The notes under the pieces are model-generated. The model saw only the letters and a program-made list of their open reading frames with translations, ran no database searches and was not told the origin of the DNA. From Escherichia coli (GTDB lineage: Bacteria; Pseudomonadota; Gammaproteobacteria; Enterobacterales; Enterobacteriaceae), in the NCBI RefSeq assembly GCF_013315695.1, contig NZ_CP054353.1: DNA of 64,000 nt. One strand, 5' to 3'. Every line of letters starts with the position of its first letter. The first letter of the stretch is position 1. Below, one piece after another: positions 1,951 to 63,078 of the stretch. Made by a program: the position numbers and the translations under genes.

Positions 1951-2334
1951 ATGTTCGTTGACAGACAGCGAATCGACCTGCTGAACCGGTTGATCGACGC
2001 ACGCGTTGACCTCGCCGCATACGTGCAACTGAGGAAGGCAAAAGGATACATGTCCGTCAGCGAAAGCAATCATCTACGAGATAACTTTTTTAAACTGAAT
2101 CGCGAACTGCACGATAAATCGCTGCGGTTGAATCTTCATCTGGATCAGGAAGAGTGGAGTGCTCTTCATCATGCTGAAGAAGCATTAGCGACAGCCGCAG
2201 TATGTTTGATGAGTGGGCACCATGATTGCCCGACTGTTATTACAGTCAACGCCGATAAGCTTGAAAATTGTCTGATGAGCTTAACGCTGAGTATCCAGAG
2301 CCTGCAGAAGCACGCCATGCTTGAGAAGGCCTGA
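1951..2334 (+). CDS. bssR: Biofilm regulator BssR
   Basis: 127-aa protein from internal ATG (MFVDRQRIDLLNRL...) inside the 138-aa ORF; matches recalled E. coli BssR (YliH) and its position next to rimO. Confidence 0.85.
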   Translation: MFVDRQRIDLLNRLIDARVDLAAYVQLRKAKGYMSVSESNHLRDNFFKLNRELHDKSLRLNLHLDQEEWSALHHAEEALATAAVCLMSGHHDCPTVITVNADKLENCLMSLTLSIQSLQKHAMLEKA

Positions 2335-2338
2335 AAAC

Positions 2339-2375
2339 TAAGGGGGAGAAAGCGTCTCCCCCTTCATGTTTAAGT
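2339..2375 (+). terminator. Candidate intrinsic terminator downstream of bssR
   Basis: GC hairpin aagggggaga-aagcg-tctccccctt followed by a T-rich stretch. Confidence 0.45.
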
Positions 2376-2444
2376 TTTTGTAAAAATGAATTTGTTATCT
2401 CCTCCACTGACTACGCTTTAAGCCAGAGTCAATCCGGAGGCGTT

Positions 2445-3560
2445 ATGCATCGACAATCCTTTTTCCTTGTGCCCCTTATTTGTCTTTCTTCCGCTCTCTG
2501 GGCGGCTCCTGCAACGGTAAATGTCGAAGTACTGCAAGACAAACTCGACCATCCCTGGGCGCTGGCCTTTTTACCCGACAATCACGGTATGTTAATCACT
2601 CTGCGCGGCGGCGAGTTGCGTCACTGGCAAGCAGGAAAAGGATTATCTGCGCCGCTTTCCGGAGTGCCGGAAGTTTGGGCGCACGGGCAGGGTGGCCTGC
2701 TGGATGTGGTTTTAGCGCCTGATTTTGCTCAGTCTCGCCGCATCTGGTTAAGTTATTCCGAAGTTGGCGATGATGGCAAAGCCGGAACTGCTGTGGGTTA
2801 TGGCCGCTTAAGTGATGATCTCTCAAAGGTGACCGACTTCCGCACCGTCTTTCGCCAGATGCCAAAACTGTCTACCGGCAACCATTTTGGCGGGCGGCTG
2901 GTATTCGACGGTAAAGGTTATCTTTTTATTGCTCTGGGCGAAAACAATCAGCGCCCGACGGCGCAGGATCTGGATAAATTACAGGGCAAACTGGTGCGTC
3001 TGACCGACCAGGGCGAAATCCCGGATGATAATCCTTTTATAAAGGAATCCGGTGCACGCGCCGAGATCTGGTCTTATGGCATTCGTAATCCGCAAGGAAT
3101 GGCGATGAATCCGTGGAGTAATGCACTATGGCTGAATGAACATGGCCCGCGCGGTGGCGATGAAATTAATATCCCGCAAAAAGGCAAAAACTACGGCTGG
3201 CCGCTGGCAACCTGGGGAATCAACTATTCGGGCTTTAAAATACCGGAAGCGAAAGGGGAGATCGTCGCCGGGACCGAGCAACCTGTTTTTTACTGGAAAG
3301 ATTCGCCCGCCGTGAGCGGCATGGCCTTCTATAACAGCGATAAATTCCCCCAGTGGCAGCAAAAATTATTTATTGGCGCGCTGAAAGATAAAGATGTCAT
3401 TGTGATGAGCGTCAACGGCGACAAAGTGACAGAAGATGGCCGTATTTTAACGGACAGAGGGCAGCGAATTCGTGATGTTCGCACTGGACCCGACGGTTAT
3501 TTATACGTTCTCACCGACGAGTCCAGTGGGGAATTACTTAAAGTTAGCCCACGCAATTAG
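2445..3560 (+). CDS. yliI: Soluble aldose sugar dehydrogenase (PQQ-dependent), YliI
   Basis: 371-aa ORF with signal peptide; length and synteny match E. coli YliI. Confidence 0.9.
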
Positions 3561-4183
3561 CTAACGGGAATCATCACCACTTTGCGCACTGCGGGGCGTT
3601 CAGTGAGTTGCTGATACCAGCGTTGCAGATTTGGACGCGGTGTCCAGGTCAGGCCAACGTTAAACAAATTGTAGATGAACGGTGCGATAGCGATATCGCC
3701 CACACCAAACTCGTCGCCGGAGAACCATTTTACTTTTGCCAGTTCCGCATCGAGCAGGGCAAACAGGGCGTCGCACTCTTTACAACTGGCATCAATGGCG
3801 GCCTGATCGCGCTCTTCCGGTGGTGTTCTGACTAATCCCATCAGGATCCCGCGATGGGCATTACTGAGCGTCTGGTTTGCCCAGTCCATCCATTTTTCTG
3901 CTTCCGCACGACGTGCCGGTGAGTCGATCCACAGGCGTTTTTGCCCGTACTGTGCCGCCAGATAGCGGACAATGGCGTTTGATTCCCAAAGAATGAGATC
4001 ACTTTCGTCGTCACGCAACAACGGCACCAGCCCGTTAGGGTTCATCGCCAGAAAATCAGCATCGTGATTTATCCCAAACTCACGGCCCGCGAGAATTTGC
4101 TCATAAGGTAGTTCCAGTTCTTCGAGCGTCAGCAATACTTTTTTTACGTTGGTTGAATTATTCCGACCCCACAGCGTAATCAT
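3557..4183 (-). CDS. gstB: Glutathione S-transferase GstB
   Basis: 208-aa product starting [16 protein letters not shown]; GST fold; synteny with yliI and dacC. Confidence 0.88.
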
Positions 4184-56340: not shown

Positions 56341-57030
56341 TTAAATGCCGAGTGGGAAAATATCATGGCCTTGTTCCTGCCAACTGGTGAGTTGCTGCTG
56401 TTGGGCGGAGGTTCGATTTTCACCGCACCACACCAGCAATGTACGGCCTTCGAACAGTTCAGGGCGTAGTTGATTGAGCGAGTGGGCGAGGACATCAATG
56501 CGCCATCCTTGTTGACTGGCAATCCAGCCCTCCAGCCACAGACGGGTGGTATCCTGAATATTCCAGCCAACCACCAGCGCATCTTTACCCTGTTTTTTAC
56601 GTGCCGAAGCCAGACAAATGGCAATGTAGTTGATCAGTACGCCGTCGAGGATCGCCAGCAGCGCCTGGAGAGTCGGTTGTTGGCACTGAAGCCGTCGGCG
56701 CAGTGGAATGAACAGATGTGTGGTGAGTGTCTGGGCGGGGTAATCCTGACCGCGCTCTTTGATCCACGTTCGCAGGCTATGCAGATTGCCGCTTTGCAGG
56801 TAAGTCAGTAATGTTTCTTGCTGATCGCGCCAGCCGTTCTGCACATCAACATTTTCATTACTGAGCAGCATTTTTACTTTGCTGACCTGCACGCCATTGT
56901 CGATCCAGCGTTTGATCTCGCGGATCCGGTCAATATCGGCATCGTTGAACAGCCGATGACCGCCGTCTGTCCGTTGCGGTTTCAGCAATCCGTAACGCCT
57001 CTGCCACGCGCGTAACGTGACAGGGATTAA
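56341..57030 (-). pseudogene. mlrA: mlrA (yehV), MerR-family curli regulator, 5'-truncated by prophage integration
   Basis: Reading frame matches MlrA from about residue 15 (..[30 protein letters not shown]...) to the stop at 56341. Upstream of about 57030 the sequence no longer encodes the MlrA N-terminus (expected ..GEVALLCD) and an integrase gene follows. Confidence 0.8.
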
Positions 57031-57062
57031 GGGTAAACTAACTGATTTTACAAGTTTTTATT

Positions 57063-58349
57063 TTACCCCACTTTCTTATGGGGCATACATGGGACACTTT
57101 CAGATAGTCTTTTGTTAAGGAGTTCTATCTGTTCGTGATTGTTGTCTTTCATCCATGCTCCGTAAACATTGAATACCATTTGTGCGTTTGTGTGGCCCAT
57201 CTGGCTTGCGATAAAACTAGGATTAGCTCCAGCGGCAAGTGACCAGCATGCATAAGTATGCCTGGATTGGTACGATTTTCTGTGTCTCAGACCTGCGTGT
57301 TTTAAGATACTTGTCCATGACTCCCTGATGGAGTCAACCTTATAGTGCGGTCCGGAAAACTGCCGCTGTTTTATTACCTGAGGACTAAAAACAAAAGTGC
57401 ATTTATGCACAGTACTTCTCCCATATTCCCTCTGCTTTACCTCTACAGAATGTTGCTTTCCAAGCATGGTCATTTCCGCCTGACTTTTAAGAGCATCAAT
57501 AGCTGGTTGAACCAGATGAATTGTCCTTCCGGTGCCAGCATCGGTTTTTGGTGGAGTGAATTCGCCAAGTTTTGTATAATTCCTACGGATGGTTATAGTC
57601 CTTGCTTTAAGATCTATATCTTCCCATGCCAGCGATACCAGCTCCCCGTGACGAATACCCGTGTATACAGCGAGAATCCACAGGTTTTTTGTTTGTTGAT
57701 GACGGCAAGCCTCAATAAAACGAATAAATTCGTCACGGGTGAGAGGATCTGGTTTTACCTTGGACTTTTTTAAGGGAGCCAGACCGTTAAATGGGTTTCC
57801 TGAGGTATAACCATTATCTGTTGCAAATTGAAACATTCCAGCTATGGTTGTCATATAGTAGTTTACCGTGACCACTGAGCGCCCTTTTATGGAAGAAGTC
57901 TTTCCATTAGAAAGTTTTTGGTAACCGGTCAACAAATCTCTCCTTACGAAAAGTAAATCCTCTTTTGTTATGGATGAAACCAGTTTTTTTTCACCTAACA
58001 TTGGTAACATGTTTTTAATTACTGACTGGTAACGGTTAAGTGCATTCGCACAAATCTCAATTTTCTTAAGGTCCAACCATTTTTCCGAAAGTGCCTTAAC
58101 GGTTATCTCTCTTTTTCCCAGACCAAAGTGTTTCAGGTTAGGGGAATTAGGGAACTGCGCGGAGTAGTCGAAACTCCCCATTCTGATTGCAAAACAAACG
58201 GAAGTGCGAAGTTCACCAGCGATCTTCCGGTTTTTGGCTGTGTCAGGAACACCGAGGTTTTCTCTGACACGTTTGCCATTATAGTGAAACCATATACGGA
58301 GTGATCCTCCATGGTTTTCAACGCCTGTCGGGTATGATGCGTTACTCAT
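57063..58349 (-). CDS. int: Phage tyrosine integrase
   Basis: 428-aa ORF with C-terminal tyrosine-recombinase catalytic region (..RHTYACWSLAAGANPSFIASQMGHTNAQMVFNVYGAWM..); 3' end about 30 bp from the att junction. Confidence 0.9.
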   Translation of the reverse strand: MSNASYPTGVENHGGSLRIWFHYNGKRVRENLGVPDTAKNRKIAGELRTSVCFAIRMGSFDYSAQFPNSPNLKHFGLGKREITVKALSEKWLDLKKIEICANALNRYQSVIKNMLPMLGEKKLVSSITKEDLLFVRRDLLTGYQKLSNGKTSSIKGRSVVTVNYYMTTIAGMFQFATDNGYTSGNPFNGLAPLKKSKVKPDPLTRDEFIRFIEACRHQQTKNLWILAVYTGIRHGELVSLAWEDIDLKARTITIRRNYTKLGEFTPPKTDAGTGRTIHLVQPAIDALKSQAEMTMLGKQHSVEVKQREYGRSTVHKCTFVFSPQVIKQRQFSGPHYKVDSIRESWTSILKHAGLRHRKSYQSRHTYACWSLAAGANPSFIASQMGHTNAQMVFNVYGAWMKDNNHEQIELLNKRLSESVPCMPHKKVG

Positions 58350-58382: not shown

Positions 58383-58637
58383 TTAACCGGAACTTGCATT
58401 TTTGGCACCTGGTTGTTTCTGGTTTTCGATCCATCGCATAATTTCTTCGATGTTGTACAGGCATTCACTGTAGTGCCTCGGATCACCTTCTACAGCGTAA
58501 TGGCGGTATTCTTTTCCCTGCATCCATGACTTTCTTCTTGCCCGCTCAATGGTGCCAGGCTTTAGCCCTGTTGATGCAATGAGGACTCTCTCCGTACACC
58601 ATTTGCTGGGGGTTATCTGATAGATGATTGTCTGCAT
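58383..58637 (-). CDS. xis: Excisionase-like DNA-binding protein
   Basis: 84-aa ORF immediately upstream of int on the same strand; basic winged-helix-like segment (LKPGTIERARRKSW). Confidence 0.65.
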   Translation of the reverse strand: MQTIIYQITPSKWCTERVLIASTGLKPGTIERARRKSWMQGKEYRHYAVEGDPRHYSECLYNIEEIMRWIENQKQPGAKNASSG

Positions 58638-58655: not shown

Positions 58656-58790
58656 TCATCCACGGCAGTGGCACCACACGTCAAACATTCGCTTCACAAC
58701 TTCACGACAGTAGAAGCCGTCAACATCTCGCGTCAGGTCATAGCGATTGCCGTAACGCTGGTGGACCCATCGTTCAAATGCTTTATTCAT
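58656..58790 (-). CDS. Small Cys-containing protein (44 aa), hypothetical
   Basis: Manual translation MNKAFERWVHQRYGNRYDLTRDVDGFYCREVVKRMFDVWCHCRG; fits the tight gene packing between xis and the next ORF; below ORF-track cutoff. Confidence 0.3.
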   Translation of the reverse strand: MNKAFERWVHQRYGNRYDLTRDVDGFYCREVVKRMFDVWCHCRG

Positions 58791-58793
58791 TCT

Positions 58794-59072
58794 TTACTTC
58801 CTTTTTATGGCTCGTAATTTTTTCAGGTGCTTTTCCTGCTCAGTGTCCGCGAGAATTTTGCGGTACTCCTGGTGGTCAATATGTTCGAACAGGCAGTTTA
58901 ACTCACCAATGCGTACCCGCCCGGATCGTCCGTCCATCCGTCGAAAGAACACTGAGTGCTCAGTGATGCGAGTAATCACCACGGGGTATCCGGCTCTGTC
59001 CGTGTATATCTGACCGCGTTGAATCAAAGCGAACATGTGGTTATCCCCATCGACAAATCGAGAACACAACAA
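58794..59072 (-). CDS. Phage hypothetical protein
   Basis: 92-aa ORF in the co-directional early operon. Confidence 0.45.
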   Translation of the reverse strand: MLCSRFVDGDNHMFALIQRGQIYTDRAGYPVVITRITEHSVFFRRMDGRSGRVRIGELNCLFEHIDHQEYRKILADTEQEKHLKKLRAIKRK

Positions 59073-59120
59073 ACGCTGCTGCGAATACCACCCCCAGAGT
59101 TACGATTGCATCAGGCCAGC

Positions 59121-59639
59121 TCATTGATTCACCTCCTGCCTGTCGTCCGGCATTCGCTCACTACAGCTTATCCAACCATCCGGAGTTACCGGAGAGCTGG
59201 TTGACGCTTCCGGGATTTTCCGAAAATTATTGGTTGACGAATCTTTATTTTCCCGAAAGTTTCCGGACTGAAGCATGGCTTCGCGGCAATCGTTCCAGCC
59301 TGTAGCGTATGCAGCCGCTTTGCTGCTGCCTTCAACTGGCGCATCCTGCCAATACATTTCTTCCGGCACTACCGGCGCTGGAGGGGCGGCGTAAATGCCC
59401 TCTATCACTAAATGTTTGCGCTCAAAATCATCTGGCTCTCGATGATATACGTAACTCCAATCACCAAGGTTATCATTGCGCCTGCAACGGAAACCTATCG
59501 GCTCTGCTTCCAGCGATGCCAGAGCAATTCGTGCCAGTTCTTCCGCTTCTTCTGCTGGCAGTACAACGTTGCTACCCGGTCCGTATGTTTCGCGCCACTG
59601 CTTGATTGTCAGCAGTCGCTCTTTGGTAATAGTGATCAT
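59121..59639 (-). CDS. Phage hypothetical protein
   Basis: 172-aa ORF; its start overlaps the stop of the upstream gene by 4 nt. Confidence 0.5.
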   Translation of the reverse strand: MITITKERLLTIKQWRETYGPGSNVVLPAEEAEELARIALASLEAEPIGFRCRRNDNLGDWSYVYHREPDDFERKHLVIEGIYAAPPAPVVPEEMYWQDAPVEGSSKAAAYATGWNDCREAMLQSGNFRENKDSSTNNFRKIPEASTSSPVTPDGWISCSERMPDDRQEVNQ

Positions 59640-61184: not shown

Positions 61185-61543
61185 TTTTTATTCTTCGGTG
61201 CTTTCGGCATTACTGCCCAGTGAGTGATATTGACGTTTTCAAGGTCCCCGACCTGAAATGTCCACAGCCATTCTCCGGTTTCTTTTTGTCCCCAGGTGTA
61301 CCAGAGAGAACGCCAGCCAATTAGCCAGCCTTCTCCGTTAGCATCAAATAACAGAACACTTTCATTTGCTGGTGGCAGTTCAGCTGACACTGGTATTATT
61401 TTGTTTTCCAGTGCCGCACATTTAGCTTCAAGCGCGTCGAATTTACGTAACAGGTACTCAGCATTTGTTTCATTCACTTTCAGATCTCGCGGTACACATT
61501 TCCCGCGAAGAAACCCTTCCATTTCGAAAACATTCATGCGCAT
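61181..61543 (-). CDS. Phage protein, DUF551-like
   Basis: 120-aa ORF with Trp-rich C-terminal segment (GWLIGWRSLWYTWGQKETGEWLW) resembling DUF551 phage proteins as recalled. Confidence 0.45.
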   Translation of the reverse strand: MRMNVFEMEGFLRGKCVPRDLKVNETNAEYLLRKFDALEAKCAALENKIIPVSAELPPANESVLLFDANGEGWLIGWRSLWYTWGQKETGEWLWTFQVGDLENVNITHWAVMPKAPKNKK

Positions 61544-62139
61544 TTGCGTAACTCCGATAAATCGTTAAAACGTTCCATAAACATCCCGTAGGCATGACCC
61601 GGTGCCAGTGGAATCACGTTGAACATCTCTGTTGCCGGGATGCCTTCCAGTACTGGCCAGAAAGAGCCATCATCAAGCCCGAGATCGCGGCGTTCGGTTG
61701 CCAGCATGATGAGATCGGCATATTTCACAGGCGTGCGCATAACCGGGGGTAACCCGTATTTCTCACGGATTACGGCGTCTATTTTTTCTTCCATCCGTTT
61801 ATAGTCAGGAAGAAGGCGTTTCAGTGGAGCGGGAATATCCTGGCAATACGCTTCTGTTGCATCATGCATTAACGCTTCAAAAGCAAATTCCTGCGGCACC
61901 AGCTGGCTGCAAAGCACCGCATGCTGGGCGACACTGTAGAAGTGTGAAAGATGTCCTGCAAAGCGACAGATATTTGAAAGGGAAACCGCGATATCGTTAA
62001 TCACGATGTCGTCTTTATTTATCTTGTCATAATAAAAATGCTTCCCGGAAAAAGTTTTAATAAATGACATTTCGTTCTCCACTTTATATGCGCTGCACCG
62101 CTCTGAATTTTGATTGCAGCAATCCAGCCCATTTGACAT
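61534..62139 (-). CDS. HD-domain phosphohydrolase (YfbR-like 5'-deoxynucleotidase family)
   Basis: 201-aa ORF with H...HD metal-binding signature (..AGHLSHFYSVAQHAVL...LMHDATEAY..). Confidence 0.55.
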   Translation of the reverse strand: MSNGLDCCNQNSERCSAYKVENEMSFIKTFSGKHFYYDKINKDDIVINDIAVSLSNICRFAGHLSHFYSVAQHAVLCSQLVPQEFAFEALMHDATEAYCQDIPAPLKRLLPDYKRMEEKIDAVIREKYGLPPVMRTPVKYADLIMLATERRDLGLDDGSFWPVLEGIPATEMFNVIPLAPGHAYGMFMERFNDLSELRKCA

Positions 62140-62160
62140 GGGATGATTGCTGCAATTTTT

Positions 62161-63078
62161 TTAAGTTGTTGGATTTTGGCTTTTATCTTCTTTGTAAGAA
62201 AGAAGGTCACACATCAAATTAACTACCTTGCTGAATTGGAAAAGGTCAGCGCCAGTCTGATGACGCCACTGGAATGCTTTATCATCTTCATCATTAAATG
62301 TCTGAGATTGAGTATTGATGCGCGAAAAATGGAAATTTTCGGTAAGAATGAAGGTCACACCGCAACCGGATAACTCCATTTTATCAGCAGTGAAACTACT
62401 ACTAAGGCTATCGGCCAGTTCGCTTTGAATTGACTCATGCTCAGCTGAGTAGCGAATAATTTCCTTTTGATCTGCGTAGCGTGATAGCTGAATATAATTT
62501 CCGACAGTGAATCCTTCAAATGCATTGGCTGCACCATTGATGTAGTTATTCAGGCGTGTAGTCAGTCCATTCTTGATATCACTGATGTTGATTGTTTCTG
62601 TTTTCACTGAACCGACAACCTTAATCAGCATTGCGCATACCATACCGGCTATTATTTTATTGGTTGTGTTGATTACCAATAATTTCTCATCAGTGCTGTA
62701 CAATGCAAGAATCAGAGTAGACTTAACAAATGCCTGTTTGCATAGATCTACTCGTACGTTATCAATAATGGCCAGTCGTTCGGCACGCTTTAATTTATTC
62801 CCGGACATATTTTCGGTTGTTTGGATTCGAGAATTAGCTTCTTTCATGACGACATGTCGGGGAATTATTTTCTGATCATGACGGATTACCATTGCGTACC
62901 CACCAGATATCGGAGTTACCAGTTCACCAGTGACAGGATTCTCTACAAAAGAGGACCGTGAAAATTCTGTTTCCCCGATTTCAGAATAAGGGAGTTCGAG
63001 AAGATGACCTTCAATAGCCTGTATACTAGGTAATGTTGCTCGGTACACAATTGCGTTACGAAATTTTGGTAATTTCAT
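62161..63078 (-). CDS. RdgC-like recombination-associated protein
   Basis: About 305 aa from ATG at 63078 (MKLPKFRNAIVYRATLP...) with aggaaa SD; N-terminal pattern and length resemble bacterial RdgC (MLWFKNLMVYRL...). The ORF-track 5' extension to 63279 is likely untranslated. Confidence 0.5.
   Translation of the reverse strand: MKLPKFRNAIVYRATLPSIQAIEGHLLELPYSEIGETEFSRSSFVENPVTGELVTPISGGYAMVIRHDQKIIPRHVVMKEANSRIQTTENMSGNKLKRAERLAIIDNVRVDLCKQAFVKSTLILALYSTDEKLLVINTTNKIIAGMVCAMLIKVVGSVKTETINISDIKNGLTTRLNNYINGAANAFEGFTVGNYIQLSRYADQKEIIRYSAEHESIQSELADSLSSSFTADKMELSGCGVTFILTENFHFSRINTQSQTFNDEDDKAFQWRHQTGADLFQFSKVVNLMCDLLSYKEDKSQNPTT

Follow-up and report, generated by a model that had tools for sequence, protein, structure and literature searches.

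The minus strand of the window (the whole 64,000-nucleotide stretch of Escherichia coli DNA that was analyzed) carries, in order, a DUF551-like ORF, a 27-codon ORF, a DUF4222 gene, a 44-codon ORF, an excisionase (xis) gene, an integrase gene, and the chromosomal gene mlrA (Table 1). The genes upstream of the 44-codon ORF in this operon are of the Ea22-like, DUF551, and DUF4222 types, and xis directly follows it on the same strand. The same operon in EDL933 starts from a λ-exonuclease-family gene. The original prediction drew attention to the 44-codon ORF as an ATG-initiated frame that fills the gap between two genes of an otherwise closely packed operon. This description is accurate, including the exact translation that was quoted, and we add only the strand, which had not been stated. 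The DUF4222 stop codon (TAA, 58796–58794) is followed by 3 nt (AGA) and then by the ATG of the ORF (58790–58788), and the stop codon of the ORF (TGA, 58658–58656) is separated by 18 nt from the xis ATG at 58637. The location of the AGGAAG sequence inside the end of the DUF4222 gene is consistent with translational coupling of the 44-codon ORF to its upstream neighbor. The start of the DUF4222 gene listed here is the ATG used by RefSeq, whereas the mechanical ORF list prolongs this gene to a TTG at 59072.

Table 1. Features of the prophage arm surrounding the 44-codon ORF (window coordinates).
Feature	Position	Strand	Description
Tyrosine integrase gene	57063..58349	minus	Final gene of the prophage arm; abuts mlrA
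Excisionase gene (xis)	58383..58637	minus	DUF1233 / xisR type; directly downstream of the 44-codon ORF
44-aa small protein gene	58656..58790	minus	MNKAFERWVHQRYGNRYDLTRDVDGFYCREVVKRMFDVWCHCRG; member of phrog_3871, identical to RefSeq WP_001030154.1
DUF4222 gene	58794..59036	minus	80 aa from the RefSeq ATG; directly upstream of the 44-codon ORF
Shine-Dalgarno sequence, AGGAAG	58797..58802	minus	6 nt ahead of the ATG of the 44-codon ORF, within the last DUF4222 codons
27-aa hydrophobic ORF	59041..59124	minus	MSWPDAIVTLGVVFAAAFVVFSICRWG; between the DUF551-like ORF and the DUF4222 gene
DUF551-like ORF	59121–59639	minus	

The prophage is integrated at the 5′ side of mlrA (yehV; window 56341–58349, minus strand), a site also used by CP-933V in EDL933, with no more than tens of bases between the integrase stop codon and the start region of mlrA. 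Several neighboring genes of the Ea22-like and DUF551-like types are flagged as pseudogenes by RefSeq, and thus this prophage arm is partly decayed. The same early operon also includes yfdR, coding for a 5′-deoxynucleotidase, and a YfdQ-family gene (window about 61534–63022, minus strand, equivalent to positions 2179–3667 of locus L001). For the K-12 element CPS-53, it has been reported that YfdR binds DnaA and that overexpression of the yfdQRST cluster inhibits the initiation of replication (PMC4776307).

By chance, 44 codons remain open with a probability of (61/64)^44, or ~0.12 per frame. The length of the ORF is therefore unremarkable, and the argument that it is a gene depends on comparative data. 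The original prediction proposed that the frame should be preserved in related prophages, and it is indeed open in 89 of the 89 loci first collected, which include 22 distinct DNA sequences and exhibit neither stops nor frameshifts. Among these 22 sequences, variation is concentrated in third codon positions, wherein 21, 16, and 40 of the 44 codons vary at the first, second, and third position, respectively. Pairwise dN/dS values (Nei-Gojobori) range from 0.03 to 0.29, and distant pairs have saturated synonymous sites. The shifted sense frames contain stops in every copy examined, and stops arise in some homologues in all three antisense frames. Furthermore, most homologues carry a GGAG, GGAGG, or GGAAG motif ahead of the ATG, also where the upstream gene is unrelated. 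These patterns of substitution identify the 44-codon frame as a genuine protein-coding gene under strong purifying selection.

The ORF had also been reported as unannotated, and this part of the original prediction does not hold. RefSeq already lists the identical protein under the name “hypothetical protein” (accession given in Table 1). In RefSeq NZ_CP014111, which is 100% identical over a 901-bp query spanning this stretch, the ORF carries that same accession, and the copy in EDL933 (prophage CP-933V, same mlrA site) is annotated as WP_000556583.1. Every one of the E. coli RefSeq matches listed that cover most of the ORF includes a “hypothetical protein” feature, and the exact 44-residue sequence is recorded on 726 contigs. 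The protein corresponds to ORF3 of BP-4795 and to STM0895.1n of Fels-1, and the ORF is left unannotated in the phage records for VT1-Sakai, phiP27, CF-SP1, and EKP1. The match to phrog_3871 (PHROGs v4, “unknown function”) runs from end to end, with residues 1 to 44 aligned to positions 1 to 44 of the 48-position profile (E = 3.2e-32, 111.6 bits). A search of the available literature by any identifier of the protein found no mention of it, and no named homologue was found. The ORF is a member of a catalogued but uncharacterized family of small phage proteins, and as such is ordinary viral dark matter. One cluster of proteins at 90% identity (P0107) mixes the 44-residue protein with 80-residue DUF4222 proteins that have no visible sequence similarity to it, and one of the latter serves as the cluster representative. 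This mixture looks like a clustering artifact, perhaps bridged by read-through or fusion calls such as the 108-residue product in locus L005.

The family comprises cytoplasmic mini-proteins of 44 to 48 residues encoded in delayed-early transcription units, and it is confined to phages and prophages of Enterobacterales. A first database search yielded 78 protein clusters at 90% identity, and a broadened profile yielded 135, all of which derive from Enterobacterales (Escherichia, Shigella, Salmonella, Klebsiella, Citrobacter, Enterobacter, Pantoea, Serratia, Xenorhabdus, Yersinia, and Franconibacter). The family is narrow: only 31 clusters at 50% identity were recovered when 1.84 billion representatives were searched exhaustively with an HMM. 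Within this range, the gene is common: it is carried by 898 of 5,426 complete E. coli genomes (~17%), with up to four copies each, and 488 related loci are present in IMG/VR. An 82%-identical, unannotated copy also occurs in Elizabethkingia phage EKP1 (OM284015; locus L176, 3001–3132), where it precedes a gene of the PrtN family (excisionase-like), an integrase gene, and dinI in an arrangement like that of E. coli phage CharmingMan. EKP1 is recorded with a Bacteroidota host, and the host assignment or the purity of that record looks doubtful.

Residues F5 and Y27 are invariant among 123 of 123 members, and Y17, M35, E6, D22, G25, and E30 are each retained in 116 to 121 of the 123. The core columns F5, E6, Y17, D22, G25, Y27, M35, and W39 are kept in 109 to 123 members, and the protein encoded in the window has all of them. 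The AlphaFold model of the 44-residue protein is confident (pLDDT 88.1) and consists of a helix at residues 3 to 13, a β-bridged hairpin loop that carries a near-invariant R-Y-D-L-x-R-D motif, and a second helix at residues 30 to 43. This predicted fold is built around the invariant or near-invariant aromatic and hydrophobic residues F5, Y17, L19, Y27, M35, F/Y36, and W39. Among solved structures in the PDB, none resembles this helix-hairpin-helix model, and no structural analogue of established function was found. A search of BFVD gave weak structural matches to portions of longer phage proteins.

The family occurs in 44-residue and 48-residue forms, and the window copy is of the shorter form, which lacks the C-terminal L-x-V-V tail of the longer one. 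In homologous loci, different xis modules are joined straight after the stop codon, which suggests that the 3′ end of the gene (window 58656–58670 and its homologues) is a recurrent recombination junction between early-gene modules and int-xis modules. A different type of rearrangement is found in E. coli 2014C-4587 (locus L175, 2407–2548), where a deletion removed most of the DUF4222 gene along with the first ~87 nt of the 44-codon gene, such that only its last 48 nt remain ahead of xisR. Resident prophages can thus lose the gene.

To describe the genomic settings of the family, we classified 175 loci by position, many of which are closely related or near-identical. The gene is located just before xis and/or int in 134 of these loci, as in Fels-1, CharmingMan, EDL933, EKP1, and Klebsiella P18-100, and BP-4795-type phages likewise carry it before xis. 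A DUF4222 gene lies immediately upstream in 104 of the 175. Another 22 loci place the gene in the nin region of the rightward early operon, after NinH or RusA, nine place it elsewhere, and 10 are too short to classify. For example, the gene follows NinH in phage PhiR5_2, adjoins rusA in EPEC E2348/69, sits between NinH and an MT-A70 methylase gene in P0095, and follows a helicase gene in P0092. In the siphoviruses K1M (a Citrobacter phage) and CF-SP1 (a Salmonella phage), the gene closes a small opposite-strand cluster located between the genes for the tape-measure and major-tail proteins; neither xis nor int is present within the ~2.5 kb of flanking sequence sampled, and the K1M copy is directly followed by a terminator-like hairpin and T-run. 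The xis genes found downstream of the family represent at least five unrelated sequence types. Given the nin and tail-cluster loci and these unrelated xis types, the association with xis is positional (the distal end of the leftward early operon) rather than an obligate partnership.

The equivalent position in phage λ is occupied by orf55 (lambdap35), which codes for a 55-residue protein. Located in the pL operon after the ea genes, it is the final member of the exo-xis region ahead of xis; its product is uncharacterized, expressed early, and non-essential. The two proteins have no sequence relationship (hhalign probability 0.2%), and their predicted structures also differ, wherein Orf55 is predicted to form three β-strands and one helix in a Gp2-like arrangement (PMC8614690), unlike the helix-hairpin-helix modeled for the 44-residue protein. 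By these comparisons, the gene is a positional analogue of λ orf55 and not a homologue. None of the small early genes of the exo-xis region (orf60a, orf61, orf63, orf73, and ea22, together with ea8.5 and orf55 in λ) is essential, and they modulate host physiology as well as the choice between lysis and lysogeny (PMC10834534, PMC8614690).

The best overall explanation for these observations, to which we assign roughly even confidence, is that the family constitutes a delayed-early accessory mini-protein that acts by binding a partner. The protein would have neither a catalytic nor a metal site and would work stoichiometrically by binding a conserved macromolecule of the host or the phage, a step to which we attach even confidence at most and perhaps slightly less. 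This binding would be timed soon after infection or induction, and it may tune phage development or host physiology, by analogy with what is thought for the small non-essential proteins of the exo-xis and nin regions. Partner binding is the default expectation for a non-enzymatic protein of 44 residues. Members from different genera are at least 68% identical even as synonymous sites saturate, which suggests that most of the protein surface is constrained and which fits a binding role.

We considered whether the protein might instead be the free-standing copy of a portable N-terminal module that in other proteins is joined to DUF551 or a Lar/Elf1-like zinc ribbon. Here it would act with a nearby protein of that type, for instance by supplying half of a split effector for restriction alleviation or some other anti-defense function. 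Published work also regards DUF551 as a portable domain of exo-xis proteins (PMC10834534). A longer relative, P0104, can be aligned with the family across 43 columns (44% identity, hhalign probability 97%) and carries a sub-threshold Lar/Elf1-like Zn ribbon after the shared domain, and another, P0106, joins the same N terminus to DUF551 (E = 5.7e-11). In K1M and in locus L099, the free-standing gene adjoins free-standing DUF551 genes, and DUF551-like genes are likewise present in the window operon. The weak BFVD matches noted above and a weak match to phrog_343 (135 residues) point in the same direction. These rare fusions suggest that the 44-residue protein may be a portable module. The comparison extends to the modular DUF551/Lar-type early proteins of lambdoid phages (YfdS, Ea22 variant 2), in that the same domain of ~45 residues is N-terminal in P0106 and P0104, whereas the window protein is the bare domain, without DUF551 or zinc ribbon, and fusions are rare.

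However, the fused forms come from a handful of short metagenomic contigs, whereas more than 120 clusters are free-standing and have no Pfam partner, and a DUF551 gene is found within 1.5 kb upstream in only 18 of the 175 loci. The ribbon of P0104 scores below the curated cut-offs (26.1 versus 39.6 bits and 21.1 versus 28.6 bits), and the window protein itself has no match to the Lar zinc-ribbon domain (TIGR03655 / PF14354). Extension of the family to other N termini was not obtained, the similarity to the N terminus of the 116-residue protein in L099 is not significant (probability 20%), and none of the PADLOC defense models matches the 44-residue protein (0 families at E ≤ 1). On balance, a module that acts together with a nearby DUF551 or zinc-ribbon protein is unlikely.

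The frequent location of the gene directly upstream of xis and/or int raises another alternative, in which the protein would be a recombination accessory that acts with Xis and/or Int on the directionality or timing of excision. This proposal draws further on P0099, a metagenomic protein of 111 residues in which the C-terminal two thirds of the domain is fused to a DUF1233 excisionase. P0099 is, however, a single sequence (one cluster representative) that lacks helix 1, and its fusion may be natural or may be an artifact of gene calling or stop loss. In addition, K1M and CF-SP1 carry the gene with neither xis nor int in the flanks sampled, and the copies in the nin region are far from both. 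The xis genes that follow are of unrelated types, and thus there is no covariation with a particular partner, while the C-terminal difference between the 44-residue and 48-residue forms looks like a junction of module recombination. The positional bias and the P0099 fusion leave room for an excision-linked role, but we consider a recombination accessory improbable.

The original prediction had noted a C-x11-C-x-C spacing as a hint of metal binding. This spacing is correct for the window copy (C28, C40, and C42), and a zinc-finger-like mini-protein could be envisioned in which H10 or H41 provides the fourth ligand. Precedents exist in the same region of λ, where the small cysteine-containing proteins Ea8.5 (a hybrid homeodomain/zinc-finger) and Orf73 (a TraR-like C4 zinc protein) bind zinc (PMC8614690). 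Those proteins have conserved four-ligand sites, whereas the 44-residue family lacks a conserved ligand column. The protein has no homology to Ea8.5 (hhalign probability 0.7%) and no Pfam match to DUF1317, DUF1382, or TraR.

When the 123 members were aligned over positions 5 to 42, no Cys or His column was found to be conserved throughout, and the suggestion of metal binding is therefore not borne out for the family. Cysteine is present at position 28 in 83 members (otherwise Ala in 29, Ser in four, Val in four, Thr in two, and Gly in one), at position 40 in 92 (otherwise Arg in 18, Gln in four, Ser in three, Tyr in three, and others), and at position 42 in 91 (otherwise Ala in 20, Leu in four, Arg in four, Val in two, and others). 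Each cysteine is thus kept in 67% to 75% of members, and all three occur together in 57, but the columns are lost to other residues in 40, 31, and 32 members, respectively, and 28 members have one cysteine or none. P0082, a naturally cysteine-poor member, carries Ala at both 28 and 42. The possible fourth ligands fare no better, with His found at position 10 in 11 members (Arg in 103) and at position 41 in only 62. Neither CxxC nor CxxH occurs as a knuckle in the 44-residue sequence, which also matches no zinc-binding entry in Pfam, NCBIfam, or the PDB.

The structural model also argues against a shared metal site. C28 is placed just before the second helix, and C40 and C42 are in the last turn of that helix, such that the two groups are at its opposite ends. 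Given the ~12 residues between them, helix geometry would set them roughly 18 Å apart. The substitutions observed fit roles in packing or at the surface: position 28, at the start of helix 2, tolerates mostly small residues (C/A/S/V/T/G) as expected for packing; position 42 fits the hydrophobic face of this helix (mainly C/A/L/V, occasionally R/F/K); and position 40 fits a surface-exposed site (C/R/Q/S/Y). We infer that the three cysteines are structural or incidental, and a metal-binding mini-protein is very unlikely. Because two thirds to three quarters of members keep each cysteine, a redox or metal role confined to a subfamily is conceivable.

Least probable of all, and extremely so, is the notion that the peptide is irrelevant and that its translation merely couples ribosomes into xis, or that a conserved DNA or RNA signal overlaps the frame; the spacers of 3 nt and 18 nt would fit translational coupling, but this reading is largely refuted by the dN/dS values, with strong purifying selection on the amino-acid sequence despite saturation of synonymous sites, and by conservation of the family where no xis follows, including the K1M copy ahead of its terminator-like hairpin. 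In addition, no Rfam family overlaps the ORF region and the RNA folding energy at the ORF is no better than that of shuffled sequences (z = 0.06), making an RNA-level explanation unnecessary, and no promoter-like site was found on the coding strand.

Little is understood of the exo-xis “dark matter” in which this gene resides in lambdoid prophages, among them Stx1-converting phages integrated at mlrA, and small early proteins of this region influence prophage induction and hence toxin release. The low dN/dS values (down to 0.03) and the presence of the gene in ~17% of complete E. coli genomes imply a role that is presumably selectable. A more ambitious and rather unlikely scenario is that an undescribed mini-fold targets a conserved Enterobacterales host factor early, or that it is a detachable recognition module of DUF551/Lar-type early proteins; either way, Stx1-type and other lambdoid prophages would be affected in their induction or lysogeny, or a host defense would be countered. 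The practical value of these findings is modest, and the length of 44 residues makes the protein suitable for quick NMR and interaction work.

A second small ORF in this operon, the 27-codon hydrophobic frame upstream of the DUF4222 gene, also has the features of a coding region. Its ATG overlaps the upstream stop codon (ATGA) and is preceded by GGAGGTG 5 nt upstream, which includes a GGAGG Shine-Dalgarno sequence, and the DUF4222 ATG lies 4 nt beyond its stop codon. Copies are conserved in 75 loci, among them divergent variants such as MNWPEAFTAVGVAIAVAFILYSLFRWG in EDL933, with conservative substitutions and a pN/pS of 0.39 to 0.50 in divergent pairs. Its mean hydropathy is 2.6 over residues 6 to 24. 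This ORF is absent from both RefSeq annotations examined (NZ_CP014111 and NZ_CP120944), and its exact sequence is not in a collection of 15 billion proteins; gene calls for the EDL933 variant are limited to a few GenBank records. The 27-codon ORF probably codes for a genuine single-pass membrane mini-protein, and as a gene that was truly missed, it is a stronger candidate than the 44-codon ORF.
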